From: an uncultured Chloroflexia bacterium
GTDB taxonomy: Bacteria > Chloroflexota > Anaerolineae > Promineifilales > Promineifilaceae
Reading direction: 5' to 3'
DNA: 64,000 nt
Assembly (NCBI GenBank): GCA_963747345.1
Contig: CAVVFA010000030.1
Coordinates: 265,910-329,909 of the forward strand
The notes under the pieces: generated by a model
Told to the model about the DNA's origin: nothing
The model's input: only the letters and a program-made list of their open reading frames with translations
Databases searched by the model: none
Program-made: the position numbers and the translations under genes
Part shown: in pieces, positions 16,762 through 60,435 of the stretch
Layout: every line of letters starts with the position of its first letter
How positions within the stretch are numbered: position 1 is the stretch's first letter

Positions 16762-16808
16762 GGAGATTAGAGACTGGCATAATCTCCAATCTCTAATCTC
16801 CAATCTCA
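16762..16808. repeat. heptamer-based hairpin element (AGATTAG/AGATTGG family), locus A
   Basis: ggagattagaga-loop-tctctaatctccaatctc; immediately after the His-kinase stop. Confidence 0.55.
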
Positions 16809-16829
16809 ATTATGCATGTTCTTTTATAT

Positions 16830-19257
16830 TCATTCCTTATTTGTTTTTCTCCGGCGTAACCCCACCAACCCCGTCACAATAAATAACGGCATCAGCATGG
16901 CTGTCCCGCAGATACCACTGGTAAGGTCTGTGGCTTCTGGCTTTGCGCCAGGGGGTGATGGTTCGGGTTCGGTGTTGGCTGGTTGTGTCGCTGGGGGATT
17001 GGTAACGGCCGTTTCCCCCCCATCTCCCTCTTCCACCACTTCCACCTCAGTTGTCTCCGGCAGCACAATCGTCTCCGCGCCACCCGTTTCCACTATTTCA
17101 TACACCTGCCCTTCGTAGACCACCAGTACATTCTGTCCCAGCGCAAAGTATTGGCCTAGTTCTGGAGCAGCGGCGAGCAAATCGAAGTAGGTATCGGTGG
17201 CAAACCCGACCGGCTGCGGGTGTTTGTTTTTCAGGATCGAAGGTGGTGTCTGTGTAACGGCCGTTACGCCATACAAACGTCTTACTACCCACCAACTTAA
17301 CTGCCTCATCCACAGAGCCGTTCACATCCCCATCCGCCTTTTCCGCGCTCGGCAGCATCGTCGGTAAGGCCATCGGTGCTGCCGCTTCCGCCATATCGGC
17401 CGAGGCCGCTGCTTCATCCACAGCCTCGCTGCTCGGGGCAAAGAAACCACCCTCTTCCTCAGTCGGTTCCTCCGCGATTTCTTCCTCCACAATCACATTT
17501 CGCCCCGTTTGCGTGAAGATGTCATCTTCCTCAATAAGATAGCTGGTGTAGGGGGTGATAATGCCGTAGCGGATGCTCAAATTGACCACGCTCTGCACCA
17601 GTTCTGGATTATCCCCATGCAGCCGAATCTCACGCAGCAGATGGCCGATGGCCCGAGTCGCCCACAACCGCGGGATGAAATCATCGCCGCCGCGTGTGCG
17701 GAACAGATTGTCTTCATACACAAATTCCTGCGGCTCGCCGTTGACAATGCCTTTAAGCGTAATTGTCGCCGCCCCGCCGTCACGATACCGTCCCGTCAGC
17801 ACCAATTGATTGCCCGCAAACAGGTCTGGCAGCGTATCGGGGTACAGCTGCTCCACCACAATGCCGTCAAAATCCAGGCTGATGTCAGACAGCACCGGCG
17901 CACTGGCTTTGGCAAAGAAACTGCTCACTTCTTCGTCGATGGCCTCATGCGGGCGCACATAAGTCGTGGTGCCGCGATGGTTTTCCGCCAGCGCATCCAG
18001 CAAATTCGGGTCTACATCGTCGCCCACGCCAAAGACAAAAATGCGGGCATTACGGGGCATCGCCTGTGCCACAGCATCGAGCAGCAGCGGCGTCTCCACA
18101 ATGCCTTCGGTCGCCAGACCATCCGTTAAAAAGATGATGGTGGTGGGACGTTGGGGATCAAGCATAACGGCCGTTTCCAACAAAGCCTGACTAATATTTG
18201 TGCCACCAACCGCTTCCAAACTGTTGATGAAGCTGTCTACGCCACCCGGCTCGTCTGCCGAAACCAAATCTTGCTCATACAGGCGCACACCAGTCGAGAA
18301 CGGCACAATATTGAAGCGGTCTTCCGGGTTCAAATGCCCAACGACGTATCGCGCCGCCTCCTGTGCCTGCGCCATTTTCTCGCCTTCCATGCTGCCCGAG
18401 GTATCCATCACCACAATCACATCTTTGGCAATCACCTCGGCCACATCCACACTAGGCGCGACCAGCAGCGTGAAGAAACCATCCTGGTCTGCCTCTTTGT
18501 AACTGAGCAAATTCAGGCCAATATCTTCTGGCGAGACTGTGTAATACAGTTCAAAATCGGTGTCAGCGACCACATTGCTGTCTTCATACCCCGCCACTGC
18601 GTGAAAATCCCCGTCGCGGTTAATGGCAACGGCATGGCTGGGCGAATAAATGGCGCGAATCGCTTCGTCAGAAAAAATTTCCACGCGAATGCTCTGGTTT
18701 TCCAGCGGCGTGTTGGTATACAAGTCAGTTGATTGCGGATAGACGTAGTGGATGACGCCATTGTCAGCCGGCAGCACCTGCGTATATTCGATTTCCACGC
18801 GTCGCTCATCACGCGGCGGAATGGGGAAGACGTTGGCCTGGATGGCTTGCGTGCCCACGTATTCCAGCAGCGCCGGATCACGCAGTTGGCGCACGATTTC
18901 GTCGTAGATTTGACGCGCTTCCTCTTTCTCCAGGATTTTGGCTTCGATGGGCTGCCCATCCACCCACATGGTGAGTTGGTTCACCGCCGCCCCTTCAGGC
19001 AGCGGAAAGAGGTAAGTGCCTTCCAGCATCCAGTCGTTGTCGTTGACAAACAGCTGCTCGATGTGGGTGGTGGCAATCTGGTTGTCGATGGTGGTATTGA
19101 CGCGCTGGTATTCGATGGTCAAGCCGTTCATGTCCCACACAGGCGGCTCGATGGGCAGTGGTTCTGGAATGATGGGGTCGTCTTGGGCAACGGCCGTTCC
19201 CACCACACTCATCAAAATTACAAATAAAGTCAGGAATAACGCAATCGTTTTTCTCAT
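16830..19257 (-). pseudogene. secreted VIT plus vWA domain protein with C-terminal TM/basic tail; apparent frameshift near the 3-prime end
   Basis: Signal peptide; VIT region; vWA MIDAS motif (DTSGSM); the 719-aa ORF turns to nonsense after DPEKQTP while ORF 16830-17309 in another frame continues (GFATDTYFDLL... ending GLVGLRRRKTNKE); T5 run at 17227-17231. Confidence 0.65.
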
Positions 19258-19317
19258 GGCAAATGCCTCCTAAGCTGCTTGCTATGATTAAAAGACGTTG
19301 CAATAAAGAAAAAGGTT

Positions 19318-19363
19318 CCAGCGATTAACGATTAACGATTGGGGATTGACGATTGGGGCATTC
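19318..19363. repeat. direct tandem heptamers CGATTAA/CGATTGG x6
   Basis: cgattaacgattaacgattggggattgacgattgggg. Confidence 0.5.
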
Positions 19364-19399
19364 ACGGCAAAAAGCGCGAAGCAGGCAAAGATTCTGGTT

Positions 19400-19722
19400 T
19401 TTCTCTGCCAATTTTTGCAACGAATTACACGAATTAGGTAAAAGCGGGAAAGTTTTTGGAAATAAAATTGTGCAAAACCCGCTTTTCCTTGAAGGAAACC
19501 ACAATTTTGCGTGTTGGTAATTTTAAGAACTTTTTGTGGTTTACCTATCACTAATTTTGGGTTTAGGTAAACAGCAGAAAGTTTACTGAAGACCGGGACG
19601 CTAAAATCTGCGGTTTCCTTCAAGGAATCGGCAAGGTTTCGCATGATTTATTTTTGAAAATTTCTTGCCGATTCCCTAATTCGTGATAATTCGCGGAAAT
19701 TCGTTGCAAAAATTTCGGAACC
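19400..19722. repeat. nested inverted-repeat element (MITE-like or structured leader) in a 490-bp intergenic region
   Basis: Outer inverted repeat atttttgcaacgaatt...cacgaattagg / cctaattcgtg...aattcgttgcaaaaat; inner perfect 16-bp inverted repeat ttccttgaaggaaacc / ggtttccttcaaggaa. Confidence 0.4.
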
Positions 19723-19749
19723 CCAGCAAATCCTAAAGAACCAAAGAGT

Positions 19750-20697
19750 TTAATTTCGGGCTGGTGCATCTGGCAGCACCGTCACCACATGGCCGTATTC
19801 GAGGGTACGGGCATGGTTTACAGCGGCAGCGACGGCGGCGGCGGCAGAAGAACCGACTTCAATGCCTTCACACAACGCCAACATCTCTTGCATCGCATCC
19901 GCTTCTACGCGGGTGATGGTCATGGCGGCATCAGCCACTATCTCATTGTAGATGGCTGGGCGGATAGCCGTGGGCATATGCTTCAAACCTTTGATGCCCT
20001 CTTTGGCACTGGCTGGCTGGACGGCGATGTTTTTAATATCTGGGTTAAACGCTCGCAGCCGACGAGCTGTGCCTAGAAATGTGCCGCTGGAGCCTAAAAC
20101 CGCCACAAAATCGGTGACTTGGCCTTGCGTTTGCGCCCAGATTTCGGGCGCCATTGTTTCGTAGTACGCTTGCCAGTTGGCGGGATTGTCGTATTGACGG
20201 GCATAGAACAACGTGGGGTCGCTCTTGGCAATTTCGCGGGCGGCACGAATGGCCCCATCGGAGCCTTGGCTGCTGTCGGTAAGAATGACTTGCGCACCCA
20301 GGCCGCGCAGGTGGGAGATGCGTTCATCTCCAACGTTTTCTGGCACACACAGCAGCAGTTTGTAACCACGTGCTTTGCCGAGCAGTGCGTAAGCCATCGC
20401 CATATTGCCCGAGCTAGAATCGAGTATGGTCATGCCGGGCCATAGCTGCCCATTTTCTTCGGCGGTGCGAATAATGTGCAGCGCCGCCCGGTCTTTGACG
20501 GAGCCACTGGGATTAAACCATTCAGCTTTGGCATAGAGCTGCACGGTTTCTGGGAGATTGGCGGCAACGGCCGTTTGCTTCAAATGCAATAAGGGTGTGT
20601 TACCAACTTGGGCTTCTACGCTCAGTGGGGAATAGGAATAGATGTGTTTGGTGGTGAGTGAATTAAGCATGTGGGCAAGTATAGAAGCGGGATTCAC
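19750..20697 (-). CDS. PLP-dependent cysteine synthase family enzyme (CysK/CysM/CBS-like)
   Basis: SGSVKDRAA Lys-PLP motif; fold-type II. Confidence 0.7.
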   Translation of the reverse strand: MNPASILAHMLNSLTTKHIYSYSPLSVEAQVGNTPLLHLKQTAVAANLPETVQLYAKAEWFNPSGSVKDRAALHIIRTAEENGQLWPGMTILDSSSGNMAMAYALLGKARGYKLLLCVPENVGDERISHLRGLGAQVILTDSSQGSDGAIRAAREIAKSDPTLFYARQYDNPANWQAYYETMAPEIWAQTQGQVTDFVAVLGSSGTFLGTARRLRAFNPDIKNIAVQPASAKEGIKGLKHMPTAIRPAIYNEIVADAAMTITRVEADAMQEMLALCEGIEVGSSAAAAVAAAVNHARTLEYGHVVTVLPDAPARN

Positions 20698-20774
20698 GCA
20701 TTTCCAGCACCATGCAAAACATTCATGATTTTTATAGTATCTATAGATGATTTCTATATAATGCCGGTTTGGAG

Positions 20775-23618
20775 TTAAGCAATTTGGTGCAGAACGGCCG
20801 TTACCACCCCATCCAACGTCTGCATCCCCTCATTCACAACCACATCAATCGTCACTAGTGCCGCAATTTCAAGATAGACGGTTTCTGCCTTCATGCGCCC
20901 TTCCTGATCCATTGCCGGTTGGCTTTTGACAAAAGCGAGTAGTTTTTGGGCATCTGCCAGGTTGCCTTCACGCCCCCAAAGCTGCGCGAGGCTCACCAAG
21001 ACATCCAGCACCAACGGCGTCGCCTGCATCTCGTGGCCGATGGACAGCGCTTCTCGGATATACGCTTTTGCATCCGCCAGAGCCCCCTGGGCGATGGCGA
21101 CATTGGACAGCGTTTCTAACGAGCCAGCAATGCCCCATTGGAAGCCAAACTCACGCCAGACCAATACACTCTGTTCGCACAACTGCCGTGCCTCTTCATA
21201 GTGCCCCGACTGCCAATAAATATTGCCCAAATTGTTGGACAGCGCGGCTTCGCCCCAACGGTCGCCAATTTCTAGACAGAGGAGTAAGCCTTGTTTGTAC
21301 CAGGTCTCTGCTTGCGCATAGTTTCCGGAATCCCCAGCGATGTTGCCCAGATTTTTGTACGTCATGGCAATGCCTTGACGGTCGTCTAGTTTGCGGAAGA
21401 GGATGAGGCTTTGCTGGCACAACGTTTCCGCCGTGGCGTACTCGCCCAAGCGCCAAGAAATATTACCCAGTTCGTTAAGCCGCCGCGCTTTGTTGTGTTC
21501 GTCGCCGATACGGTCACAGATTTCCAGTCCATCTTGGTAGAACTGGCGGGCTTTGTCATACTCGCCTTGGTCGGCGGCGATGTGGCCGAGCGTGGCCAGG
21601 GCGCTCGCCATGCCGCCCACAAAGGGAATGATCTGGCACAGGGCTAAACTTTCTTGGCACCACTGTTCTGATTCTTCATACAGTCCTTGGCGGTAGGCGA
21701 TTCTGCCTAATAAATTGAGGGTGAACACAGTTTCGCGCTGCATGTGCACGCGGCGGAAGAGGGGCAAACTTTCTTCTAACAGGAGGCGTGCTTGCTCATA
21801 ACGGCCGTTTCGGTAAGCAAACTGCCCTTCGCGTGCCAACAATTTCCCCCAGAGTACATCATCCACGGCGTCACTGTTTTGGTCTCGTAATTGGCGCAAG
21901 TGGATAACGGCCGTTCCGAATAAGTCACGTCCTTCTTCCAACCAGCCACGCATGTCATAAAAATGAAAAAGGGTGTCGCAAGCCAGTTGCACCCACGCGA
22001 CTTGTTGTCGATTAAGCGCCCAATGCCAGGCCGCCCGCACATTGTCAATTTCTTGCCCGATTTCTTTTAGGATTTCGGCTTGTTGTGCGGGTTTTTGCTG
22101 GGGGTTTCGTTCGTGCAAAAAACGGGCAAAGTGGTGAGCGTGACTGTCGCAGGCTGAGACCATTTCGTCAGAAAACAGATCGTTTCCCACTAAGATATGT
22201 GGCTCTTTATTGAGCATTTCCACAGCAAACAGGCGTAGGAGTTCGTGCATTTCATACCGCGAAACGGCCGTTTCGCCAATGGCCGTTTCGCCACTCATTA
22301 TCTGTCCTTGCAAAAATGATTTATCAGCCAACTGCCCCAGCATGAAAAATGAAGTGTGGGAAACAGCCAGCGCATCTGCCCACCTAAAACCACCCCGGAA
22401 AACGGCCAAGCGACACACCACATGCTGCTCTTCCGCCGAAAGCAGCGCCCAGGAATAATCAAACACAGCCCGCAAAGAACGATGGCGGGGTGGAATATCC
22501 CGCCAATTGGTAGCCAGAAACTCAAAATTATGGGCAATTTCTTTGGCAATTTCTGCGCAGGTCAGCAGACGCGCCCAGGTTGCCGCGAGTTCAATTGCCA
22601 GCGGAAAGCCATCGACCAATTGGCAAATCTCAACAATTGCCGACTTATCCGCTTCTGCCAAGACAAAATCAGAACGGACATGGCGAACGCTTTGCACAAA
22701 AAGCTGAACGGCGCTGTACTGTTCAAAATCCAGATGGGGTTTTGCTGGTTCCGGCAGCATCCCCGTGACGCGCCGCATCGGGAACGACATGCCGCTGACT
22801 TCAAAGGCCCACTCGCCATGTAGATTGAGTCGTTCTCTGGAAGTGATCAGGAATTGCACCTGTGGGGCTTGACTAATAATGTCGGCTACCAATTGCGCTT
22901 CCATCATCAGGTGTTCAAAGTTATCCATTACCAGGAGCAGTCTTTTATCGCGGAGGTGGTTGATTAGTTGGGTATGCTGCGCGAGTCCATCGATGAAGGA
23001 AAAGTCGATGTTGTTGGCAATGGTGGAGAGGAGGAAATCGGGAGAAATCAGGGTGGCTAAGGGGACGAAGTAAACACCATCAGGAAAGAAAACGGCCGTT
23101 TCCTCCGCAGCTTGTAGCGCCAATCTTGTTTTGCCGATACCACCTGGCCCTATCAGGGTGAGAATACGGCAGTCGGGATCATGCAGTTGCGCCTGGATGG
23201 CAGCTAATTCTTCTTGGCGACCCACAAACGAGGTGGGCTGAATGGGTAAGAAGATGTTGGCGGCAACTGACGGCGTGGTGGTTGGGGAGAGAGGGGTTGA
23301 TGGGGAAACGGCCGTTTGAAATAGTTCGTCTAAAAACTGATTCGGTTGAGGATGCTGCGCACTCACCAAGAAGCGGGCTGCCCATTCATGCGAAAAGCCA
23401 CCCCGTTGCACGATCAAGCGTGTCAAATTCTCGACATCAGACGTTTTTGACGGTAAATGTCCTTTGCGCCAATACTCAATAGAAGAGCCGCCCTTCTTGC
23501 CTAATGCGTATCCTAAATTGTCTTGTACTGCTTGTAAACTTTTAGACTCTCGATGCCGAATCTGATAAACAGCTTCCGTTAACAGTCGGGCAAATGACTC
23601 GGCGGAGACGTTTGCCAT
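20775..23618 (-). CDS. STAND ATPase: XRE-like HTH plus NB-ARC P-loop NTPase plus C-terminal TPR array
   Basis: Start MANVSAES preceded by GGAGGG; Walker A GPGGIGKTRLAL; more than 10 TPR-like repeats at the C-terminus. Confidence 0.7.
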   Translation of the reverse strand: MANVSAESFARLLTEAVYQIRHRESKSLQAVQDNLGYALGKKGGSSIEYWRKGHLPSKTSDVENLTRLIVQRGGFSHEWAARFLVSAQHPQPNQFLDELFQTAVSPSTPLSPTTTPSVAANIFLPIQPTSFVGRQEELAAIQAQLHDPDCRILTLIGPGGIGKTRLALQAAEETAVFFPDGVYFVPLATLISPDFLLSTIANNIDFSFIDGLAQHTQLINHLRDKRLLLVMDNFEHLMMEAQLVADIISQAPQVQFLITSRERLNLHGEWAFEVSGMSFPMRRVTGMLPEPAKPHLDFEQYSAVQLFVQSVRHVRSDFVLAEADKSAIVEICQLVDGFPLAIELAATWARLLTCAEIAKEIAHNFEFLATNWRDIPPRHRSLRAVFDYSWALLSAEEQHVVCRLAVFRGGFRWADALAVSHTSFFMLGQLADKSFLQGQIMSGETAIGETAVSRYEMHELLRLFAVEMLNKEPHILVGNDLFSDEMVSACDSHAHHFARFLHERNPQQKPAQQAEILKEIGQEIDNVRAAWHWALNRQQVAWVQLACDTLFHFYDMRGWLEEGRDLFGTAVIHLRQLRDQNSDAVDDVLWGKLLAREGQFAYRNGRYEQARLLLEESLPLFRRVHMQRETVFTLNLLGRIAYRQGLYEESEQWCQESLALCQIIPFVGGMASALATLGHIAADQGEYDKARQFYQDGLEICDRIGDEHNKARRLNELGNISWRLGEYATAETLCQQSLILFRKLDDRQGIAMTYKNLGNIAGDSGNYAQAETWYKQGLLLCLEIGDRWGEAALSNNLGNIYWQSGHYEEARQLCEQSVLVWREFGFQWGIAGSLETLSNVAIAQGALADAKAYIREALSIGHEMQATPLVLDVLVSLAQLWGREGNLADAQKLLAFVKSQPAMDQEGRMKAETVYLEIAALVTIDVVVNEGMQTLDGVVTAVLHQIA

Positions 23619-23846
23619 TGTTTTAACCCTCCATTCCGAAAATTCGGAGTAAGTTCGGAATATTTTTCTACATACTCGGAGTAGGAACGTAATAGTATAG
23701 GATGATCTCCCCTGTGGCAATATAAAATTGCTTACGTTGGGCATATGCCCACACCTGCTAAGTTGATGAGGGAGCCACAGTTTAGTTTTCACCGTTTTGC
23801 ATGGCGTGAACCCCATTTTATTCTAGTAGGAGGAATAAAAAGACGT

Positions 23847-27035: not shown

Positions 27036-27055
27036 TTTGTGACAGTGTACTAGAA

Positions 27056-27093
27056 TAAAAAAAGAGGGTCTCATGACGAGACCCTCTTTTTTG
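27056..27093. terminator. bidirectional Rho-independent terminator
   Basis: A7, stem agagggtctc/gagaccctct, then T6. Confidence 0.6.
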
Positions 27094-27111
27094 TCTGGCT
27101 TCGCAAGTTAT

Positions 27112-27757: not shown

Positions 27758-27906
27758 GGTTTCCTCCGTTCTGAAAATAAAACTCGATGTCGATTCAAGG
27801 TTCAACGACACCGCCTAGGATTCTAACATGGATAACGATCCAGCGAGCCTGTTTGTTCCAAACTATTCATTTTGACAAAGTGAGCAGAAATTTTTATAAC
27901 CATGCC

Positions 27907-28818: not shown

Positions 28819-29668
28819 TAATCAACGGTGGCTCGGTCTGGAGACCGGCCGCAGCAAAGGATTTAGGCAATTGGGCATCACCTTACTGCGTGTATTCGCG
28901 GCAATTCTTTTACTACTGCCGCTGTTGTTTATGGTGACGACATCACTCTATCCCCCAGGCGAGCCGCTGCCAACGACGCTGCGCCTTTTGCCTGCCCGTC
29001 CCACATTTGCCAATTATCAGCGCATCTTTGAACTGCTGCCGCTGTGGCGCTATACCTTCAATTCGCTGGTCGTGGTGCTGTTGGCCGTGCCGATTACGTT
29101 GGTGGTCAGTTCGTGGGCGGGACTGGGCATGGCGCGGCTGTCTCGGCCAGCACAGCGGCGTTGGATTGTGATTTCGCTGGCGGTGCTCATGGTTCCCGGC
29201 ATCGCGTTGTGGTCTACCCGCTTTTTGCTCTACCGCACGCTGGGCTGGTACGACACGGTGTGGGCGTTAGTCGCCCCCGCCTGGATGGGAACCAGTCCCT
29301 TTTACATCCTCATGTTTTACCGTGCCTGCCGCCGCATTCCGTCAGCCCTGTTTGACGCGGCGCTGATTGATGGTGCAGGTGTGCTGCGCATCTGGTGGTC
29401 GATTATTTTACCGATGGCTCGCACAACGGCCGTTGGTGTAGCCCTCCTCACGTTTGTTTTTTACTGGGGCGACTTCATCAGTCCCCTACTCTATCTGCGC
29501 ACGGGGGACAAATACACTTTGCCCGTTGCCCTGCAAACCTTGCAGCAGCTCAGCCGCTCCGACTGGTCGCTCATGCTCGCCGCCGCCGTCTGGACGATGG
29601 CGATCCCCATTTTGCTGTTTTTGCTGCTCCAACCTGTTTTTAATAGAGGTCAAAGAGAAAGTTCATGA
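28748..29668 (+). CDS. ABC sugar transporter permease (MalG/UgpE-like); start uncertain (possibly TTG near 28871)
   Basis: EAA loop DAALIDGAGVLRIWWSIILP; 6 TM helices. Confidence 0.7.
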   Translation: MWWRFTSSPSSGTSARRRIRLSSSNQRWLGLETGRSKGFRQLGITLLRVFAAILLLLPLLFMVTTSLYPPGEPLPTTLRLLPARPTFANYQRIFELLPLWRYTFNSLVVVLLAVPITLVVSSWAGLGMARLSRPAQRRWIVISLAVLMVPGIALWSTRFLLYRTLGWYDTVWALVAPAWMGTSPFYILMFYRACRRIPSALFDAALIDGAGVLRIWWSIILPMARTTAVGVALLTFVFYWGDFISPLLYLRTGDKYTLPVALQTLQQLSRSDWSLMLAAAVWTMAIPILLFLLLQPVFNRGQRESS

Positions 29669-29712
29669 TTAACGATTTACGATTCAGAGGATTAATGATC
29701 AACGTATTAAAG
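29665..29712. repeat. GATT-heptamer direct repeats overlapping the 5-prime end of the solute-binding-protein ORF
   Basis: atgattaacgatttacgattcagaggattaatgatcaacg. Confidence 0.4.
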
Positions 29713-31017
29713 ATTAGTGCGTATCGCTGGCCTAAAATCTTTAATCTTCAATTTTTAATCTTAATTTTTTTATTTCTCACAGCTTGTACGAGCCAACCTA
29801 CGCAAGAAACCATCTCCTTCATGGTGTTTGGTGATCCGGCAGAATACAACGCCTACAAGGAACTGGTGGATGCGTTTAACGGCAGCCAGGCAGAGGTGGT
29901 GGTGGAGTTAACCCACGTGCCATCGCCCAAAGAGTACCGCACGCGGCTGGTGACGGAGTTTGCCGCCGGCACACCATCCGACGTAACGCTGATGAACTAT
30001 CGCCGCTACGCCAGTTTTGCCGCCAATGATATGCTCGCGCCGCTTGGCCCGTTTTTGGCAGAAAGTGATCTCATCAGCCTGGAAGATTTTTACCCCGTGG
30101 CGACGGATGCCTTCATGTGGCAAGGGGAACTGATGTGCATCCCGCAAAACATTTCCAGTCTGGTGGTGTATTACAACGAAGATTTATTTGATGCCGCCGG
30201 ACTCCCCTATCCGGCTGACAAGTGGACGTGGGCTGAGTTTGTGCAAACGGCCGTTTCCCTCACTCGAGACACCGACGCAGACGGCACCATCGACCAGTAC
30301 GGGCTCGGCATTGAACCCTCTCTGTTCCGGCTGGCTCCGTTTGTGTGGCAAAACGATGCGCCCATCGTCGATGATGACGTGCAGCCCACCCGCCTCACAT
30401 TGACGCGCCCCCCGTCACTGGCGGCATTTCAATGGTTCACCGACCTGCATAACGTGCATGGCGTCGTGCCGGGGCGCGTAGAAGAAGCCGCGCAGGACAG
30501 CGAAAGCCGCTTCCTGGCCGGAACCACCGCCATGTACCTCAACAGTCGGCGCGGCGTGCCAACCTACCGCGAAATCGACTCGTTCACCTGGGATGTGGCC
30601 TCACTGCCGAACAACAAAACATCTGCGGGCATTCTCCACTCCGACGCCTACTGCCTCTCGCAAACAACCGTCAACAAAGAAGCGGCGTGGCAGTTTATCG
30701 AATTTGCGAATTCAGTTGAAGGGCAAACCATCATTGCCGGTTCAGGGCGAACCGTGCCGTCGCTCATCGCTGTGGCTCAGTCTGACGCCTTCTTAAACCC
30801 CAGCCAGCCGCCCAGCCGCGCCCACGTGTATCTGGACAATGCCAGCGTGATGCGGCGCGTGCCTGTCATCAGCACCTGGGAAGAAATCGAAAGTGTGGCC
30901 GACGAGGAAATCGAACGCGCCTTCTACGGCGACATCACTGTCGAAGAAGCCGCAAATCTGGCTTTCTGGCGTACGGAGGAATACTTTTTTATGGGGGAAA
31001 CGGCCGTTACTCGTTAA
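29665..31017 (+). CDS. ABC transporter extracellular solute-binding lipoprotein (family 1); start may be the second ATG at 29695
   Basis: ATGA overlap with the upstream permease; lipobox FLTAC; the 5-prime end overlaps a GATT-heptamer repeat. Confidence 0.7.
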   Translation: MINDLRFRGLMINVLKISAYRWPKIFNLQFLILIFLFLTACTSQPTQETISFMVFGDPAEYNAYKELVDAFNGSQAEVVVELTHVPSPKEYRTRLVTEFAAGTPSDVTLMNYRRYASFAANDMLAPLGPFLAESDLISLEDFYPVATDAFMWQGELMCIPQNISSLVVYYNEDLFDAAGLPYPADKWTWAEFVQTAVSLTRDTDADGTIDQYGLGIEPSLFRLAPFVWQNDAPIVDDDVQPTRLTLTRPPSLAAFQWFTDLHNVHGVVPGRVEEAAQDSESRFLAGTTAMYLNSRRGVPTYREIDSFTWDVASLPNNKTSAGILHSDAYCLSQTTVNKEAAWQFIEFANSVEGQTIIAGSGRTVPSLIAVAQSDAFLNPSQPPSRAHVYLDNASVMRRVPVISTWEEIESVADEEIERAFYGDITVEEAANLAFWRTEEYFFMGETAVTR

Positions 31018-36880: not shown

Positions 36881-37793
36881 TTATTCACTACGCCTAGTCA
36901 ATACCACCAGCCCCGCGAATAACAGGCCAATCCCCAACCAGGCCAGTGGCTCCAATGATTCGCCTACCACGAAAATGCCCAGGAGAGCGGCGGTTAACGG
37001 TTCGGCTAAGGTGAGGGAAACGGCCGTTGCTGAACTCACCGTCTTCAACCCAATTGTAAACAGCAAATAAGCACAAGCCAACGTGATCACGCCCAAATGG
37101 AGCGATACCACAAACCCGCTTGGCTCCGTTAGCCAGCTCATATCCAATACAAAGCAGAGCGGCAGCATCAACAGCGCCCCCAGGCCAAAAACGACTCCCG
37201 CAACAACGGTAGACGGCCGTTCTCCGACCAAGAATTTACTGGCAATGGTATACACCGCATACGCCGCGCCTGCGCCCACCGCCAACAGCATCCCGCCCAC
37301 ATCGACCTGAATGCTTTGGCCGCCGCCGATGAGCAGCGTGCAGCCCACAATCGCCAAACCTGTCGGCAATCGCCCACTGCCGCCCCGGCCACGTCCGAAA
37401 CACGATCCAGGTCAGCAATCCGGCCATAATCGGCGAACTACCGATGCCCACAATCGTGCCCATCGCCACGCCTGCTCGCGCCACACCCGCAAAAAACAAA
37501 AGTTGATAGCCCACCATCCCCAATACAGCCAAAACCAACGGCACAATCGGCCATCGACCGCCGTGCCGCCAGCCGCCACGCGCAAACATCAAGCCTGCCA
37601 ACAGCGCCCCGCCCAGCACCATCCGCACCGTTCCCACCGCCAGCGGCGATGTGCCGGCTGGCGCAAAGGTTTGGGCCGTGCCAGTGGTCCCCCACAGTGT
37701 TGCGGCTAATAAAACAAACCAGGCGCCTGAGATTGTGCGGGATTTTGCGGCCATTAAAAGACTGAGATTGAAGATTGGAGATTGGGAGACCAA
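36881..37793 (-). pseudogene. DMT-superfamily (EamA-like) transporter, apparent frameshift between the two EamA domains; its last 46 codons are tail copy 3 (36881-37028)
   Basis: ORF 37236-37793 (EamA domain 1) degenerates after IMAGLLTWIVF; ORF 36881-37369 in another frame carries EamA domain 2; switch at 37370-37400 (C4/G-rich). Confidence 0.6.
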
Positions 37794-37820
37794 TCTCTAA
37801 TCTCCAATCTCTAATCTCTC
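37763..37820. repeat. heptamer-based hairpin element, locus B
   Basis: gagattgaagattggagattgg-gaga-ccaatctctaatctccaatctctaatctc then T5; overlaps the hydrolase stop. Confidence 0.55.
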
Positions 37821-38636: not shown

Positions 38637-38696
38637 TGGGGAATTGTTAATTGTAAATTGCCAATTGTCAATGAAAAAATGTATATCTGTTAACTT

Positions 38697-40358: not shown

Positions 40359-40416
40359 AAAATCACACTGTTCCTTACTGTATTAGACAATGATTATCTA
40401 AAAAAGTTTCAATGAG

Positions 40417-40500
40417 GGGCAAAGTGGCAAGGTTGCAGAGTTTTAAGGTGGTAGTGTGACCAGGTTACTTTGCTACTTTGCCCCCTGGCAACCCTGCCAC
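40417..40500. repeat. imperfect palindromic repeat, family 2, second copy
   Basis: ggcaaagtggcaaggttgcagag ... ctttgctactttgccccctggcaaccctgccac. Confidence 0.45.
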
Positions 40501-40580
40501 TTCTCAAATCTGTGAAACTTTTTCTACACAGTACGGTCTAATTTAGTGAAAGGCTCAAAAATATCAGGTCGGAGGTTTAC

Positions 40581-47983: not shown

Positions 47984-48279
47984 GTGTCACCTACCTTACT
48001 AGCTCATGAATGAGACGACATAGTGACATCCCCTCTGCATTTTGTAGTTTACCATAACAGAATCCCCAGTCAAGTTATGTTTAATTGTTTCCACGAGTGA
48101 ATGGTTTCCTTCTCTCTTTTGCCTGTGGTATACTTTTTCCGATTCGTAGCGATACAGGCGTCTTGGGAGAGACTCAGAGTTTAAATGTATGCCATGCATA
48201 ATTACTCGAGGTGAATTTCTTGGTCTCTGGTTAGCCGCTTCAATTATAATAGGTAGGTATCCCCATTCCATCAGGAGAT

Positions 48280-49206: not shown

Positions 49207-49253
49207 TTCAAGAAAAGTGATAATCAGTCTAGTAGTACCGTGGAGATTCGTGA

Positions 49254-51542: not shown

Positions 51543-51577
51543 CGACAGTGTGGCAGCAAATTTTTCTATAGACGAGG

Positions 51578-51608
51578 GGCTTGGTAACGGCCGTTACCGA
51601 GCCTTTTT
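51578..51608 (+). terminator. Rho-independent terminator built on a 16-bp palindrome GGTAACGGCCGTTACC
   Basis: ggcttggtaacggccgttaccgagcc followed by T5. Confidence 0.55.
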
Positions 51609-51719
51609 ATTACCCCCCGATTAGGGTTTCCGAAAACAGAGGCACTCCACCACGATTAGGGTAAAATATGGGGTGCAATACAAGCGCACAAAAATAGTTT
51701 AACCTGGATAGGCATCATT

Positions 51720-54040: not shown

Positions 54041-55397
54041 ACCCTTAGTCGCCCTCGTTGGACGTCCCAACGCAGGCAAATCAACCTTATTCAACCGCAT
54101 CGTCGGACGGCGGCTTGCTGTCGTTTCCGAAGTGCCTGGAACCACCCGCGACCGGCTGTACGCCGACTCCGAATGGGCGGGCAGCGTCTTCACCGTCGTC
54201 GATACCGGCGGCATCGAAGTGACCGAAGGCTGGCAGACCGAGCCGTTGTCCGAAGACTCCGTACTCTTCCTGCCTGCGATTCGCACCCAAGCGGCCATCG
54301 CCATCCAAGACGCCGATGTCATCGTGCAAGTGGTAGATGGCCGAGCGGGCATCACCGCCGCCGACCAGGAAGTCGCCGATATTCTGCGCCAGACGAAAAA
54401 GCCCGTTATCATCGCCGCCAATAAACTGGAATCCATCAATAGAAGAGACGATGCTTACGAATTCTATGAATTAGCCTTGGGCGAAGTCTTTGCCGTCTCT
54501 GCGCTGCATGGCAGTGGCACCGGCGATTTGCTCGATGCCATCACCGAGGCCATCCCCTTTGTTCCCGAAGAGGATGAAGATGACGATACCATCAAAATCG
54601 CCATCCTGGGCAAGCCCAATGCCGGCAAATCGACCCTGCTCAACAAACTCATTGGTGAAGAACGGGCTATCGTCAGCCCCATTGCTGGCACAACCCGCGA
54701 TGCCATCGATACCAAGCTCACCTTTGAGGGACAGGAATTTACGCTTATCGATACCGCCGGTATTCGCCGTCCCGGCAAGATTGACCCCGGTGTGGAAAAA
54801 TACAGCGTTCTCCGGGCCATCAAAGCGTTGAGCCGTGCCGATATTGCCTTGCTGCTCATTGATGCCGAAGCGGGCATCACCGCCCAAGATACGCATATTG
54901 CGGGGATGCTCACGGAAGAAAACTCCGGTGTTATCGTGCTGGTGAACAAATGGGATGCCGTCGTTAAAGACTCGTTTACGATTTATGATTATGAAAAAGA
55001 GTTACGTGAGGCGTTGAAGTTCATTCCGTACGCGCCCATCATCTTCATTTCTGCTAAAACGGGCAAGCGCGTCGAGAAGATTTTGCCTAAAGCGTTGGAA
55101 GTTCAAGAAACGCGCCACCAGCGCATCCCCACCTCTGAGTTGAACAAATGGATGCGTGACGTGATCACCGTGCATCCACCGCCCAGTCATAATGGCTTGC
55201 GCGTCAAGTTTTTCTACACGACCCAAGTTACCACCGCCCCCCCGACGTTTGTGATGTTTGTCAATAAACCAGAATGGGTGCATTTTAGTTATCAACGGTA
55301 CCTGGAAAATAGACTGCGGGAAGAATATCCGTTTGAAGGCTCTCCCATGCGCCTTGTTTTTAGAGCGAGAAGCGAAGACCGCTTCGATACCAAATAA
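54030..55397 (+). CDS. der: ribosome-assembly GTPase Der/EngA
   Basis: Two G domains (GRPNAGKST, GKPNAGKST) plus KH-like C-terminus. Confidence 0.85.
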   Translation: MSYKPLVALVGRPNAGKSTLFNRIVGRRLAVVSEVPGTTRDRLYADSEWAGSVFTVVDTGGIEVTEGWQTEPLSEDSVLFLPAIRTQAAIAIQDADVIVQVVDGRAGITAADQEVADILRQTKKPVIIAANKLESINRRDDAYEFYELALGEVFAVSALHGSGTGDLLDAITEAIPFVPEEDEDDDTIKIAILGKPNAGKSTLLNKLIGEERAIVSPIAGTTRDAIDTKLTFEGQEFTLIDTAGIRRPGKIDPGVEKYSVLRAIKALSRADIALLLIDAEAGITAQDTHIAGMLTEENSGVIVLVNKWDAVVKDSFTIYDYEKELREALKFIPYAPIIFISAKTGKRVEKILPKALEVQETRHQRIPTSELNKWMRDVITVHPPPSHNGLRVKFFYTTQVTTAPPTFVMFVNKPEWVHFSYQRYLENRLREEYPFEGSPMRLVFRARSEDRFDTK

Positions 55398-55410
55398 TAT
55401 ACTTGTTTGC

Positions 55411-55444
55411 AGACCTCCGAGGTTTTAAAAACCTCGGAGGTCTT
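55411..55444 (+). terminator. perfect 14-bp inverted repeat hairpin after der
   Basis: agacctccgaggtt-ttaaaa-aacctcggaggtct. Confidence 0.45.
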
Positions 55445-55475
55445 TGTAGAACGAGAAAGAGAAAAGGCTACAGCA

Positions 55476-56552
55476 ATGGCTGATCAATCCAATCAAATTA
55501 ATGATTATTACGTACAAACCCGACCTGGTTTAGAAGAAATCGCCTGGTTAGAAATTCGAGATATGCTGCCGTATGCTAAATTTGGCGAATATCTATTTGC
55601 CAAAGAGCAAAATGGCGTCGTCACCTTTTCTTATAAGGGGAATATGGCCGATGTCAATCAACTGCTGACCAGTGAAGATGAGTTTTTGCAAGCGCTGTCG
55701 ATACCCAAGCTGTCTCGGGGACGGCAAGATTTGGCTATGATTCAGGAAGCTGTGGCAAAAGGTGAAGAATTTGGCCGCGCTACCAACCAGTTCTTGCGCT
55801 TCCGACAGTTTAGCCACCCGCCATCGTACCGCGTCATTTGCCGGAAGTTTGGCACGCATGAGTATCGCCAATCTAATGTGGAACAGGTTGTTCTTGATGC
55901 GATGATGAAGCGCTATCCACGTTGGCAGCCCATTACCGATGGGCCGCAGGTGGAATTGTGGATCAACTTGCTCGGCTCTCAATTGTTGTGTGGGTTCCGC
56001 ATCACGGACAAAGGCATGAAAAAGCAGCATAAACTGCGCAAAGCCTCGCCTAGTTCGCTGCGCCCATCCGTGGCGGCCGCGATGGTGGGGCTGACGCAGC
56101 CAGATGATGATGATGTCTTTCTGGATCCGTTTTGTGGGGATGGCATTATGTTGCAAGAGCGAAAGCTGTTTGGCAATTATGCCCATTTATGGGGAGCCAA
56201 TGAGGGTATCAGCCAGGTTTCAGTTGCTGAAATGAACCTGGCTTCCAAGAAAAGCAATCGGCTCTCGACGGACATCACGTTGGCGACTTGGGTCAATTTG
56301 AAGCTGCCTTTGGAAGATGAGTCGGTAGACAAGATTGCGACCAACTTGATGGAAGTGGAGATGGATTTGGGTTCTGTTTTCAAGGAAATTGGGCGTGTCT
56401 TAAGGCCGGAGGGAACGGCCGTTATCCTCAGCAGTGAATACGACAAAATCAAAGACACCATCCGCTACCGTCCCGAACTGGAAATCATGACCGGCTACTC
56501 CGTCAAACCCGCCAGCCAGTGGGGTCGGATTTACATCATCAAACGCAAATAG
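55476..56552 (+). CDS. THUMP-domain RNA methyltransferase (RlmL/Trm-like)
   Basis: THUMP-like N-terminus; DPFCGDG SAM motif. Confidence 0.65.
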   Translation: MADQSNQINDYYVQTRPGLEEIAWLEIRDMLPYAKFGEYLFAKEQNGVVTFSYKGNMADVNQLLTSEDEFLQALSIPKLSRGRQDLAMIQEAVAKGEEFGRATNQFLRFRQFSHPPSYRVICRKFGTHEYRQSNVEQVVLDAMMKRYPRWQPITDGPQVELWINLLGSQLLCGFRITDKGMKKQHKLRKASPSSLRPSVAAAMVGLTQPDDDDVFLDPFCGDGIMLQERKLFGNYAHLWGANEGISQVSVAEMNLASKKSNRLSTDITLATWVNLKLPLEDESVDKIATNLMEVEMDLGSVFKEIGRVLRPEGTAVILSSEYDKIKDTIRYRPELEIMTGYSVKPASQWGRIYIIKRK

Positions 56553-56559
56553 AAAAACT

Positions 56560-56617
56560 GAGATTGGAGATTAGAGATTGGAACGTGAAGCAATCTCCAA
56601 TCTCTAATCTCCAATCT
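56560..56617. repeat. heptamer-based hairpin element, locus C (21-bp perfect stem AGATTGGAGATTAGAGATTGG)
   Basis: A-run, stem, 10-nt loop, stem, then a T-rich stretch. Confidence 0.6.
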
Positions 56618-56622
56618 TATTT

Positions 56623-57931
56623 ATGAAAGTTTACCTCCACAGCATCGGCTGCCGCCTGAACCAGAGCGAAATCGAGACCATGGCCCGCCAGCTTCTTGCC
56701 GCCGGACATGAGATTGTCACAGAAACGGCCGTTGCCGATAAAGTCATCATCAACACCTGCGCCGTCACCGCCGAAGCCGCCAGCGACGCCCGCAGTCATG
56801 ACGCGGCGCATCCACCGCCAAAACGACGCCGCCGAAATTCTGCTCACTGGCTGTTACGCCACCATCGCCCCCGACGAACTGGGTAAAGTGGCCGGAGCCG
56901 GACGCATCGTCCTCAACAAAGACAAAGCTAACCTCGTGCCCCTGCTCGACCCCAAAGCCCGCATCGACCTGCCCCTGTTTGACCAGGAACCCGTCATGCG
57001 CGAATTTTTGGCAGGCACGGCGGGCAATACCCGCGCCTTCATCAAAGTGCAGGATGGCTGCAACAACAAATGCACCTTCTGCGTCACCACGATTGCGCGA
57101 GGCGAAGGCCAAAGCCGCCACTTGGGCGACATCATCGCCGAAATTCAGGCGCTGACCACCGCTGGCTACCAAGAAGCGGTGCTTTCAGGCGTGCATATGG
57201 GCAGTTATGGCTACGATTTTGGCAACCGAGCTGGACTGATGGAACTGGTGCAGGCCATCCTCGACCACACCGACATCCCCCGCTTGCGCCTCTCCTCGTT
57301 GGAACCGTGGGACATTGCGCCCGGCTTCTTTACCCTGTGGCAAAACCCGCGCTTGCTGCCCCATCTGCACATGCCCCTGCAATCTGGTTGTGACCGCACG
57401 TTGCGGCGCATGGCGCGGCGTACCAATCAGGTCAGCTTCCGTGAACTGGCTGACGCCGCCCGCGCCCACATCCCCGACCTCAACCTGAGCAGCGACATCA
57501 TCGTCGGTTTCCCTGGCGAAACGGAAGATGAGTTCCAAACCAGTCTTGATTATGTGCGTGAGATTGGTTTTTCGCGGCTGCACGTCTTCACCTACAGCCA
57601 GCGCCCCGGTACGGCCGCCGCCACCATGCCCGACCAGATTCCAGGCCCCGTCAAAAAAGAGCGCGTGCAGCGCATGATTGCCCTGGGCAACGAGATGAGC
57701 CTCGCCTTCCACCAGCAGTACGAAGGCAAAACGATGAATGTGCTCTGGGAAAGCAGTGTCGGTGCGAACAGCCACGGCCTGCGCTGGGTGGGCTACACGG
57801 ACAACTACATCCGCGTCAACGGACACGGCCCTGCTGATTTGTTTAATAGGGTGACGACTGTGAGGTTGGAAAACGCGAGGGTTGATGGCATGGATGGCGT
57901 GATTTTAGGTAAGGGCCAGGCAATCGTGTAA
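56623..57931 (+). pseudogene. MiaB/RimO-family radical-SAM methylthiotransferase, apparent frameshift after the N-terminal MTTase domain
   Basis: ORF 56623-56886 (MKVYLHSIGCRLNQSE...IINTCAVTAEAASDARS then nonsense); ORF 56696-57931 in another frame (...ILLTGCYA..., CNNKCTFC radical-SAM motif, TRAM end); switch at 56775-56800. Confidence 0.7.
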
Positions 57932-58048
57932 AACCGTTGCCACGCAGAACCTTTTCATCACCGATTGCCTTACCCGCGTGGTAATCGAGCGACGTGATGC
58001 GTGAAATGGCATCGCGTTTGGCATAGAACATACCCCATCGCATAGCTC

Positions 58049-58666
58049 TTACTCGTCTTCCTCAAATACCTGCGTGGTAAAGATAAACAAGTCAGCGGTG
58101 CGCCAGGCATCAGGGCGTAAGCCGGCCTTGCGGCAAATGGCTTCCAGGTATTCATCCCGCGACCAGCCAAACATGCCCGGCACTTGCGGCAGCAGCAAGC
58201 CCCGCTTTTGGCCGCCGACGATAACGAGACCGTGTACGCCTAACTCAATCTCTTCGATGTGGGTAACGGCCGTTAACGCCGAGAGGATCGAGATTTCAAT
58301 GTGGAGGGTGGGCAGCTCAACGGCCGTTACCGGTGGAAACCTCGGATCACGCAGCGCCGCCTTCACCGCCATCACCGGCACTAACTCAATCAGCCGTTCA
58401 TCCGCAGTCATATGGCCGATGCAGCCGCGCAGCCGGGCGGCAGTATCGGGGGGCAGGCCAGGCTGCCAGCGGGTGCGCAGCGTAACAAATACCCCCGCTT
58501 TCTGCTGAAGAATGGGGTCATCTGTTTGTGACGGAGGAAACCGCTTGGCTTGCAGGTAATAGCCAATTGCTTCACGCGCTAAAACAAGCAGCTCACGCTG
58601 CTGCGCGTCGTTCAATGTCAAAATAGGGTGGGGAACTGCCTGGGATTCACTTTCTGTGCTTGTCAT
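58049..58666 (-). CDS. AMMECR1-domain protein
   Basis: About 200 aa with the conserved RGCIG motif. Confidence 0.6.
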   Translation of the reverse strand: MTSTESESQAVPHPILTLNDAQQRELLVLAREAIGYYLQAKRFPPSQTDDPILQQKAGVFVTLRTRWQPGLPPDTAARLRGCIGHMTADERLIELVPVMAVKAALRDPRFPPVTAVELPTLHIEISILSALTAVTHIEEIELGVHGLVIVGGQKRGLLLPQVPGMFGWSRDEYLEAICRKAGLRPDAWRTADLFIFTTQVFEEDE

Positions 58667-58930
58667 TGCTCACCTTCCTTCGCACAAAAATATTGTAGCA
58701 CAGAAAGCAATCAGCCTTCTTCTTGAATTTGCTCTTTCCGAGTCGTATACAAAGTCCGCCTTCGCGGACTAAAAACAGCCGGATTGAGAATTGCTGTTTT
58801 GCTCCCCCGCTTTTGACGCCAATTTTCCTCACTGTTATACTCCTCGCTTGCTGGAAAGTAGTCGAGGTGTCACAACATGTGGGAGTCAACGACCACAAAT
58901 CAACACCCAGCAATCAATTGAGGCAGAATA

Positions 58931-60373
58931 ATGGCAAAACAAGACAAACTCACCCCGCGCAGCGAGGATTTCAACGAATGGTACAACACCGTCGTGCAAA
59001 AAGCGGATATGGCCGACTATGGGCCAGTGCGTGGCACGATGATCGTCAAGCCCTATGGTTGGGCTTTGTGGGAAAATATACAAGGCGCGTTAGACAGCCG
59101 CTTTAAAGCCACAGGTGTGCAAAACGCCGGCTTCCCCATGTTTATCCCCATGAGCTTCTTGCAAAAAGAAGCGGCCCATGTGGAAGGCTTTGCCCCTGAA
59201 CTCGCCGTCGTCACCATTGGCGGTGGGCAGGAACTGGCAGAACCTCTCGTCGTCCGTCCCACCTCGGAGACGATGATTGGACACGCCTACTCCAACTGGA
59301 TTCAGAGCTACCGTGATTTGCCGATGCTGCTCAATTTGTGGAACAGTGTTGTCCGCTGGGAACTGCGCACCAAGCTCTTCCTGCGCACCCTGGAATTCTA
59401 CTGGCAAGAAGGCCACACCGCCCACGCCACCGCCGAAGAAGCGGATGAACGCACCCGCCTGATGCTGGATGTGTACACCGACTTTGCTGTCAACGAAGCG
59501 GCCGTGCCTGTGATTCCTGGTATTAAATCAGATATGGAACGGTTTGCTGGGGCCAACGAAACCATGACCATTGAAGCGATGATGGGCGATGGCAAAGCGC
59601 TGCAATCGGGTACTTCTCACAATTTGGGCGAAAATTTTGCCAAAGCGTTCGATATTCAATACCTCGATAAGAACAACGAATTGCAAAATGCGTGGACAAC
59701 TTCCTGGGGTTTGAGTACCCGCTTCATCGGCGCCATTATCATGACGCATGGTGACGACCACGGCTTGATTTTGCCGCCCCGTTTGGCTCCTTATCAGACA
59801 GTGATTGTGCCGATTTACAAGAATGATGAAGAAAAAGAAGCCGTTCTCGAAGCGACCAATCGCATTCAGCAAGAACTCATTGCCGCTCATGTTCGTGTTA
59901 AAGTCGATGACCGCGAAAACTTGACCCCTGGCTTCAAGTTCAACGACTGGGAAATGCGCGGCGTACCAACCCGCATTGAAATCGGCCCGCGTGATGTGGA
60001 GAAGAATTCGGTGGCCTTAGCCCGCCGCGATATTCCAGGACGGGATGGCAAGCAGTTTGTGTCGCAGGATGGCATTGCGCAAACGGTGGCTGATTTGCTG
60101 GTGACGGTGCAGCAAGCACTCCTGGATCGGGCGACCAAATTCCGTGACGACAATACGCATGACGTGGACAACTATGATGATTTCAAAACGGCCGTTTCCA
60201 CAGGATTTGCTCGCGTGTGGTGGGCAGGAGACAGCGCCGAAGAGACCCAGGTCAAAGAAGAAACCAAAGCCACCATCCGCTGCTTCCCCATCGACCAGCC
60301 CGGCGGCACAGGCACCTGTTTCTTCACCGGCAAACCAGCTGATAGAATCGCCATCTTTGGCCGCGCTTATTAA
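58931..60373 (+). CDS. proS: prolyl-tRNA synthetase, archaeal/eukaryal-type (no INS editing domain, about 480 aa)
   Basis: Class II motifs; length and N-terminus typical of the arch/euk-like ProRS found in some bacteria. Confidence 0.8.
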   Translation: MAKQDKLTPRSEDFNEWYNTVVQKADMADYGPVRGTMIVKPYGWALWENIQGALDSRFKATGVQNAGFPMFIPMSFLQKEAAHVEGFAPELAVVTIGGGQELAEPLVVRPTSETMIGHAYSNWIQSYRDLPMLLNLWNSVVRWELRTKLFLRTLEFYWQEGHTAHATAEEADERTRLMLDVYTDFAVNEAAVPVIPGIKSDMERFAGANETMTIEAMMGDGKALQSGTSHNLGENFAKAFDIQYLDKNNELQNAWTTSWGLSTRFIGAIIMTHGDDHGLILPPRLAPYQTVIVPIYKNDEEKEAVLEATNRIQQELIAAHVRVKVDDRENLTPGFKFNDWEMRGVPTRIEIGPRDVEKNSVALARRDIPGRDGKQFVSQDGIAQTVADLLVTVQQALLDRATKFRDDNTHDVDNYDDFKTAVSTGFARVWWAGDSAEETQVKEETKATIRCFPIDQPGGTGTCFFTGKPADRIAIFGRAY

Positions 60374-60379
60374 AACAAA

Positions 60380-60435
60380 AGATTAGAGATTGGAGATTTG
60401 GGATCGATAATCTCCAATCTCTAATCTCTAATCTC
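60380..60435. repeat. heptamer-based hairpin element, locus D
   Basis: agattagagattggagat-loop-atctccaatctctaatct. Confidence 0.6.

Follow-up and report, generated by a model that had tools for sequence, protein, structure and literature searches.

A 64-kb stretch of DNA from an uncultured Chloroflexia bacterium (assembly GCA_963747345.1, contig CAVVFA010000030.1), in the following called the window, harbors four inverted repeats whose arms consist of tandem copies of the heptamer AGATTRG and its complement. These elements, designated hairpins A to D, are described on the + strand, and all coordinates count from the first base of the window. Gene identities were taken from Pfam. Hairpin A is located between the stop codon of a GAF-HisKA-HATPase kinase gene (+ strand, end at 16761) and a convergent VIT-VWA gene on the - strand. 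Hairpin B is flanked by two co-directional minus-strand genes, encoding an abhydrolase and then an EamA transporter. Hairpin C begins 6 nt past the TAG stop (56552) of a gene for a THUMP/UPF0020 methyltransferase, and its 3' end is found about 4-5 nt ahead of the ATG (56623) of a gene for a MiaB-like MTTase. Hairpin D begins 6 nt past the TAA stop (60373) of an archaeal-type proS gene and ends 10 nt ahead of the ATG (60446) of a bacterial-type ProRS gene, leaving an AGG Shine-Dalgarno-like motif outside the stem. Three of the four elements (B, C and D) are located at apparent operon junctions of co-directional genes without space for a promoter. A preliminary description of this DNA had placed each hairpin immediately after a stop codon. 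This agrees with the gene map, but the hydrolase is encoded on the minus strand, with the TAG stop of its gene (37797-37799) falling within the right arm of B.

Operon expression, genome rearrangement and assembly quality are all influenced by dispersed palindromes between genes, which have been investigated almost exclusively in Proteobacteria (REP) and in cyanobacteria (STRR, HIP1). The AGATTRG hairpins are a dispersed family of palindromic heptamer arrays which is widespread in filamentous Chloroflexota. They occupy tight, mostly co-directional spacers, abut or overlap the upstream stop codon, almost always carry the G-rich arm first, and are gained, lost and replaced between close relatives. 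The family is undescribed in the literature searched, but it is an ordinary kind of dispersed repeat, best filed as new STRR-like palindromic heptamer arrays that are REP-like by position.

Four heptamer hairpins in the window

At all four loci, the sequence reads (AGATTRG)2-4, a short loop and (CYAATCT)3-4 (Table 1). Tandem heptamers had been proposed for all arms, and they are present at each locus, although A has a short, degenerate left arm. The double heptamer AGATTRGAGATTRG with at most one mismatch was found 19 times in the window, every time within loci A to D, compared to 0.05 occurrences expected from dinucleotide shuffles. A relaxed 12-mer search of the window added just two stray matches, and TRF called arrays of period 7 (and 14) at each of the four. 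The elements were also folded as RNA on either strand, with z-scores calculated against shuffles (Table 1). Sequence, double-heptamer count and z-scores together bear out the four inverted repeats of the preliminary description, and the AGATTRG hairpins of the window are real and non-random.

Table 1. Hairpins of the window and states of the orthologous sites C and D in relatives (MFE, minimum free energy; MTase, methyltransferase)
Feature	Position	Composition	Folding	Protein identity
Hairpin A	16762-16808; arms 16764-16777 and 16779-16806	Left arm GGAGATTAGAGACTGG (AGATTAG AGACTGG), short, degenerate; right arm (T)AATCT CCAATCT CTAATCT CCAATCT, 3.5 CYAATCT units; inverted repeat 16 nt, 94%	+ strand MFE -24.4 kcal/mol, z -4.3; other strand z -5.6	
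Hairpin B	37763-37820; arms 37765-37785 and 37790-37817	GAGATTGAAGATTGGAGATTGG, loop, CCAATCTCTAATCTCCAATCTCTAATCTC	+ strand MFE -35.3 kcal/mol, z -6.2; other strand z -5.8	
Hairpin C	56559-56619; arms 56561-56581 and 56597-56617	Perfect 22-bp core, AGATTGGAGATTAGAGATTGGA pairing with TCCAATCTCTAATCTCCAATCT	+ strand MFE -37.6 kcal/mol, z -8.4; other strand z -8.1	
Hairpin D (site D, window)	60380-60435; arms 60380-60400 and 60407-60434	AGATTRG hairpin, perfect 19-bp core	+ strand MFE -32.7 kcal/mol, z -7.6; other strand z -7.9	ProS 100%
Same hairpin class, other unit	14363-14422	GTTGCAG/GTGGCAA 8-mers, G-rich arm first	-42.6 kcal/mol, z -7.6	
Same hairpin class, other unit	40401-40523	Nested, GCAAAGT/GGCAAGG-type units, G-rich arm first	-52 kcal/mol, z -4.6	
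Site D, L119		Unique GC-rich hairpin and additional open reading frame		ProS 99%
Site D, L120		Empty, TAAGAATTAGGAAACCTTATG, proS and ProRS 15 nt apart		ProS 97%
Site D, L117	L117 11443-11560	ACACGGA-unit hairpin		ProS 96%
Site D, L121		(TAGTCTNN)6 hairpin		ProS 93%
Site D, L122		Canonical terminator, flanks in common with window		ProS 92%
Site D, L118	L118 11443-11510	ACACGGA-unit hairpin		ProS 91%
Site C, L203	L203 1250-1385	CACAGAG/CACGGAG-unit hairpin		MTase 95%
Site C, L204		GC-rich hairpin		MTase 87%
Site C, L205		Small degenerate AGATTRR hairpin, TAA stop inside first unit		MTase 80%
Site C, L206	L206 4068-4225	CACAGAG/CACGGAG-unit hairpin		MTase 79%

Several other assignments were tried and dropped. 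Rfam gave no match at the gathering threshold across the whole window, so a known RNA family was discarded, and a CRISPR reading was set aside because the loci lack a spacer-repeat organisation. Inverted AGATTAA-like units at 29700-29770 were not counted as a fifth, degenerate copy, since they fold no better than shuffles (z = -1.3).

Distribution, anatomy and turnover of the family

The pattern AGATTRGAGATTRGAGATT was scanned in the GTDB representatives, with one genome per species, and was found at 116 loci at least. Chloroflexota account for 86 of the 116 matches listed and, by our own count, for at least about 50 assemblies or species. This bears out the dispersed, heptamer-built repeat family that had been suspected from the window alone. 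The carriers among the matches listed belong to the NCBI classes Ardenticatenia, Caldilineae and Anaerolineae and comprise Ardenticatenaceae, Promineifilaceae/Ca. Leptofilum, Caldilineaceae, Anaerolineales and one 11-Mb 'Chloroflexia' metagenome-assembled genome; the nearest relatives of the window by ProS are labelled Promineofilaceae. A BLAST comparison of the window with the 116 loci listed revealed the repeat alone in common and no synteny. Hairpin copies are essentially confined to Chloroflexota among the matches listed, and the few cyanobacterial ones (L024, L036, L113) are plain arrays.

The two arms follow an almost fixed order. Among the matches listed, 122 arrays from Chloroflexota loci include 42 hairpins with the G-rich arm first (FR) and a single one in reversed order (RF). 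The 33 arrays listed from other bacteria include one FR and no RF hairpin, and 101 arrays from viral contigs include neither, so that nearly all arrays in these two groups are plain tandem arrays. As a control, a complementary 14-mer (at least 12 of 14 positions) within 80 nt was located downstream of 61 arms and upstream of 2. Solo tandem arrays make up about 45% of the Chloroflexota arrays, and the palindromic form about a third to a half. In the 45 hairpins used for the anatomy, the stem has a median of 23 pairs, starts with GAGATT and ends with AATCTC; the median loop is 8 nt (range 3-46) and the median MFE -40 kcal/mol. The loops are unrelated, and the unit count differs between arms as well as between copies. 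Other perfect inverted repeats of at least 14 bp in the Chloroflexota loci have a G-rich 5' arm in 30 cases and a C-rich one in 12, compared to 1 and 5 in control loci. Hairpins built from other 7-8-mer units were G-first in all cases found (TAGTGCG, GAGCAGT, GAGCGRT, AATTGTG, GACGGAR, AAACGTR, GGGTAATT, ACACGGA and TAGTCTNN). Separately, the 35-kb viral contig IMGVR_UViG_3300031949_000113 (L220, L227, L260, L279, L283) carries at least 7 AGATTRG triple-heptamer arrays, all of them solo tandem arrays without hairpins.

For the comparison of orthologous positions, site D was defined as the position after the proS stop and site C as that after the methyltransferase stop, and relatives were compared by protein identity (Table 1). 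The hairpins of the window are not conserved orthologous terminators, because the same sites in close relatives (91-99% identity in ProS, 79-95% in the methyltransferase) are empty or hold other hairpins. Identical orthologous hairpins in just four copies, which the preliminary description had named as the mark of simple conserved terminators, are thus not what the relatives contain, and the outcome favours a dynamic family. About 98 kb of sequence from these relatives lacks the double heptamer, compared to four clusters in the 64-kb window, so that the turnover of AGATTRG copies is much quicker than that of the genes around them. Strong hairpins are nevertheless present in five of six alternative states at site D and in four of four at site C, which suggests that a stem-loop is needed, or tolerated, at these particular positions. 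Fixed operon junctions show very fast replacement between hairpin families. In the relative assembly ERZ24842465 and others, hairpins of ACACGGA, CACAGAG and CACGGAG units replace AGATTRG at the same junctions, so that the preferred unit family at a given site seems to vary from genome to genome. A metagenome scan with the THUMP methyltransferase protein found no relatives, and a scan with ProS returned mostly distant loci (66-71%), usable as a negative control alone.

The junction between Der and the methyltransferase (55409-55443) carries a unique palindrome, GCAGACCTCCGAGGTTTT/AAAACCTCGGAGGTCT, which is kept with small changes in the 87% relative (L204 2940-2975). Unlike the fast-turning heptamer hairpins, this palindrome is conserved.

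The comparison also bears on the proposal that C and D bracket a segment of MTTase, AMMECR1 and proS genes. The bracketing is coincidental: D lies within a conserved proS-proRS pair, because the next gene after D is the bacterial-type ProRS gene. This conserved unit spans D, and what lies ahead of proS is different in every relative. The archaeal-type and bacterial-type genes are arranged in tandem at 58800-62177, and their pairing is kept in the relatives L117-L122. The proS gene has its own conserved promoter-like sequence (TTGACG-17-TATACT) with a leader of about 100 nt; everything ahead of this promoter-like sequence varies from relative to relative. Both genes downstream of C and D contain frame shifts, the MTTase gene (56623-57931) near 56797 and the ProRS gene (60446-62177) near 61300, and intact orthologues match with at least 86% identity on both sides. 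The EamA gene next to B (36881-37793) appears split. These frame breaks are probably assembly indel errors rather than signs of pseudogenes.

One explanation acts at the level of DNA, namely that the hairpins are binding arrays for a conserved Chloroflexota protein, for example one involved in nucleoid association or topology; in E. coli, BIMEs serve gyrase and IHF in this way. Conservation of the exact heptamer across classes, a mismatch pattern that is symmetric between strands, and solo arrays without transcription-strand bias would all suit such a protein. The wide range of loop lengths and the variable unit number argue against a fixed operator geometry, however, and close relatives swap in unrelated units at the same site or, over the 98 kb mentioned above, have no copy at all. 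As there is furthermore no candidate protein known, we regard this explanation as extremely unlikely.

Comparison with known elements and possible roles

Across the family, gene positions were read from crude longest-ORF (open reading frame) maps and are approximate. On these maps, 30 of 45 hairpins are located outside ORFs, although ORFs make up 89% of the DNA. Of 29 hairpins with classifiable context, 21 are found between co-directional, 3 between convergent and 5 between divergent genes, and the background spacers are distributed 220:72:78. The co-directional cases show a median distance of 1 nt to the upstream stop and of about 15 nt to the next start, and the upstream stop codon is often provided by the edge of the element itself (cTGAGATT, TAGAGATT).

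The preliminary description had regarded the hairpins as able to act as bidirectional terminators, several of them having A- and T-rich flanks. Like canonical intrinsic terminators, they are strong stem-loops directly past stop codons. In addition, A is located between convergent genes, B has a 5' A-tract and a 3' T-tract, and a canonical terminator occupies site D in one relative (L122). In contrast to canonical terminators, which combine a GC-rich stem and a loop of 3-8 nt with a U-tract behind them, AGATTRG hairpins have a long stem of lower GC content and no U-tract. The 10-nt flanks of the 45 hairpins are not T-rich (T fraction 0.29 in the 3' flank), and B alone among the window hairpins has both tracts. 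C and D were not called by a consensus terminator scan, and their A-tracts are located 5' on the coding strand. By sequence position, C and D do not mark the end of a transcription unit: the next start is 5 and 10 nt away, respectively, without space for a promoter, and the gene pair around the empty site D in L120 is 15 nt apart. Most members of the family are flanked by co-directional genes, with no avoidance of divergent spacers. We therefore consider intrinsic bidirectional termination very unlikely as the function of the family. The window does contain canonical bidirectional terminators (839-875, 27058-27092 and about 41330), in which A and T tracts enclose a short GC stem and which are located between convergent genes. 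They were found in a hairpin survey of all window spacers (120-nt windows, crude ORFs), which was too noisy for any general claim and served for this purpose only.

With the REP, BIME and REPIN elements of Proteobacteria, the AGATTRG hairpins share their nature as short extragenic palindromes just downstream of coding regions and often in operons, their dispersal, their variability between relatives and, likely, transcription as RNA stem-loops. REP superfamilies are defined by an unpaired GTAG or CGTC tetranucleotide tag at one end of the stem-loop and a stem of 5-13 bp (PMC3733652). The AGATTRG hairpins differ in that their arms are tandem 7-mer arrays instead of unique sequence, their loops are not conserved, and their stem of about 23 bp exceeds the REP range. 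They are 45-60 bp long or longer, compared to 20-40 bp in total with conserved stem and loop in REPs. When the 45 hairpins were examined up to 8 nt from their stem ends, GTAG/CGTC tags or their complements were found 0-1 times per tag and flank, and 0.9 are expected by chance. In the Chloroflexota loci, the 73 ORFs flanking 42 hairpins include no transposase, and therefore no RAYT, and no recurrent family (144 families with no more than 3 members each); a RAYT gene is generally present in a single copy, and the survey covered neighbourhoods only. MITEs have terminal inverted repeats enclosing a conserved interior, with a target-site duplication on the outside. These features are likewise missing, as the entire element is a palindrome with no conserved core. 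The length distribution of target-site duplications equals that of the control, and the filled site D of the window shows no duplication when compared with the empty one in L120. In a strict sense, the REP/MITE-like character which had been attributed to the hairpins is therefore not borne out.

These comparisons bear on the possibility that the hairpins are non-autonomous mobile DNA of the REPIN/REP or MITE type, copied in trans by a transposase, for example a RAYT/IS200-type HUH enzyme acting on single-stranded hairpins. The dispersed copies, the presence/absence polymorphism with an empty site in L120, and four copies in the window compared to none in about 98 kb from close relatives would be expected of a mobile element. 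GTAG-type REPs have been reported in Chloroflexi (PMC3733652), and a structured substrate would fit the fixed polarity of the arms. Besides the stem length and the missing tags, target-site duplications and transposases, the unrelated loops and varying unit numbers indicate that the copies are not replicas of a master element. The A/G pattern within the units does not form significant genome-specific subfamilies (p = 0.38). On balance, copying by a transposase appears distinctly unlikely.

The closest likeness is found in the STRR sequences of filamentous cyanobacteria, with units such as CCCCAGT, TTGGTCA and CAACAGT. STRR are 'usually made up of 7 bp repeats', and hairpins formed by them between genes, for example hupS-hupL, are 'not unusual'; roles in transcript stability or translational coupling have been proposed (PMC2670836). 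AGATTRG arrays are likewise dispersed 7-bp tandem units in intergenic DNA of filamentous bacteria, some of which fold as hairpins, and B, C and D as well as 21 of 29 family members are placed, judged from gene direction, between presumably co-transcribed genes. The two differ in unit sequence and host phylum, and the AGATTRG unit spans several classes and has the 42:1 arm order. They are the same kind of element but not the same family, and, by analogy, the AGATTRG hairpins are best read as the Chloroflexota counterpart of cyanobacterial STRR hairpins. Further abundant intergenic heptamers of filamentous bacteria are the (GATAGRA)n satellites of Chloroflexus aurantiacus (PMC6749651), from the same phylum, and the TAACTGA repeats known from Beggiatoaceae and cyanobacteria, which are direct, keep a fixed orientation ahead of start codons and include a single reported inverted case (PMC4679880). 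Both are described as direct arrays, whereas AGATTRG elements are inverted, form hairpins and abut stop codons. The literature searched, a limited library, contained no description of AGATTRG hairpins or of the G-first rule, and the unit string matched primers by coincidence alone.

The RNA function and the local remodelling of the hairpins we infer as follows. A hairpin would be transcribed together with its flanking genes and form a long stem-loop in the mRNA, either intercistronic or at the 3' end, which would differ from a canonical intrinsic terminator. Such a stem-loop may act as a barrier shielding the upstream message from 3' exonucleases, and could perhaps attenuate read-through or couple the stop to a restart. 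Unit number and A/G pattern within the arms would be altered locally by slippage. Of the explanations considered, a co-transcribed stem-loop acting in this way is the most likely, with chances that we regard as evenly balanced. Several results weigh against it, beginning with the crudeness of the gene maps. Divergent spacers are not depleted of hairpins (5/29, compared to 21% in the background), and solo arrays have no preferred strand with respect to genes. In the sense transcripts of co-directional contexts there is no asymmetry at the RNA level (G.U 12 versus A.C 15, p = 0.70). Covariation of the R/Y positions between arms is weak (GC 47, AT 15, GT 15, AC 12), with a chi-square of 8.3 that is inflated by the choice of the best register, and 30% of these positions are non-Watson-Crick compared to about 44% expected. 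In addition, a generic stem-loop function does not explain why one arm order prevails by 42:1 or why the unit is identical across classes. The null results for G.U/A.C asymmetry, covariation, strand bias and A/G pattern would be in line with young elements undergoing remodelling as DNA, and are no proof of a role as RNA.

Several of the same results would also be expected if the hairpins were a by-product of replication slippage and fold-back (template-switch) synthesis at tandem arrays, unselected and tolerated in the few non-coding bases after stop codons. The large share of solo arrays without strand bias, the different unit numbers and nearly independent R/Y patterns of the arms, and the missing G.U versus A.C asymmetry are in line with this, as are the many other 7-8-mer units forming like hairpins in these genomes. 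The heptamer is moreover the commonest repeat-unit size in bacteria, which has been ascribed to polymerase slippage (PMC4679880). Neutral fold-back should yield both arm orders, however, and independent slippage does not predict an identical unit in at least about 50 species across classes. Nor would it lead sites to retain a strong hairpin while the sequence family changes. We judge this origin unlikely.

The near-fixed G-first order across units and the single heptamer across classes could also reflect a dedicated polar process of repeat building, or a conserved factor recognising AGATTRG. In one form, the G-strand could be made first by templated or slippage synthesis, and fold-back copying could then take place where breaks or stalled forks occur beside stop codons. 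This has a slim chance of being correct; if true, it would amount to a transposase-free generation and renewal of palindromes, which is not known to have been described in bacteria.

The AGATTRG sequences represent an easily searchable repeat marker for Chloroflexota, among them two filamentous families with high abundance in wastewater metagenomes, Promineifilaceae and Ardenticatenaceae. The rule that the G-rich arm comes first is simple and testable, and is not predicted by current models for the origin of REP and STRR. The natural filled and empty alleles at these sites are suited to the study of intercistronic stem-loop effects.

Further repeats in the window

Two additional hairpins of the window, at 14363-14422 and 40401-40523 (Table 1), represent a second unit-built family of the GTTGCA/GTGGCA type, the former situated between the co-directional + strand genes 13550-14359 and 14439-15368. 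Further period-7 tandem arrays were detected at 1819-1872, 19322-19358, 29667-29769 and 38642-38672, with the units AACTGTT (7.7 copies, apparently within an ORF), CGATTAA/GATTGGG, GATTAAC/AATCTTT and AATTGTC. The genome of the window has a general habit of heptamer repeats.

A repeat of a different type is the palindrome ACGGCCGT, which occurs 66 times in the window (e.g. at 1591, 11957, 31097 and 51587) compared to 0.9 expected, and which is part of the decamer AACGGCCGTT in 61 of the 66 sites. These sites appear about once per kb, mostly within ORFs. The second commonest 8-mer palindrome of the window is found 8 times, and HIP1 of cyanobacteria (GCGATCGC) does not occur. With 15-29 copies per locus (8-21 kb), ACGGCCGT is also found in many loci of Ardenticatenaceae, Promineifilaceae and Leptofilum as well as in the close relatives, and it is missing in other lineages. 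In Chloroflexota it appears to be a highly iterated palindrome in the manner of HIP1, and it may be more novel than the AGATTRG hairpins; a review of HIP sequences mentions neither CGGCCG nor Chloroflexi (PMC4390886). The AACGGCCGTT palindrome forms the centre of several hairpins in the window, such as GGTAACGGCCGTTACC with TTTTT behind it (listed at 11946-11975 and 51578-51603).

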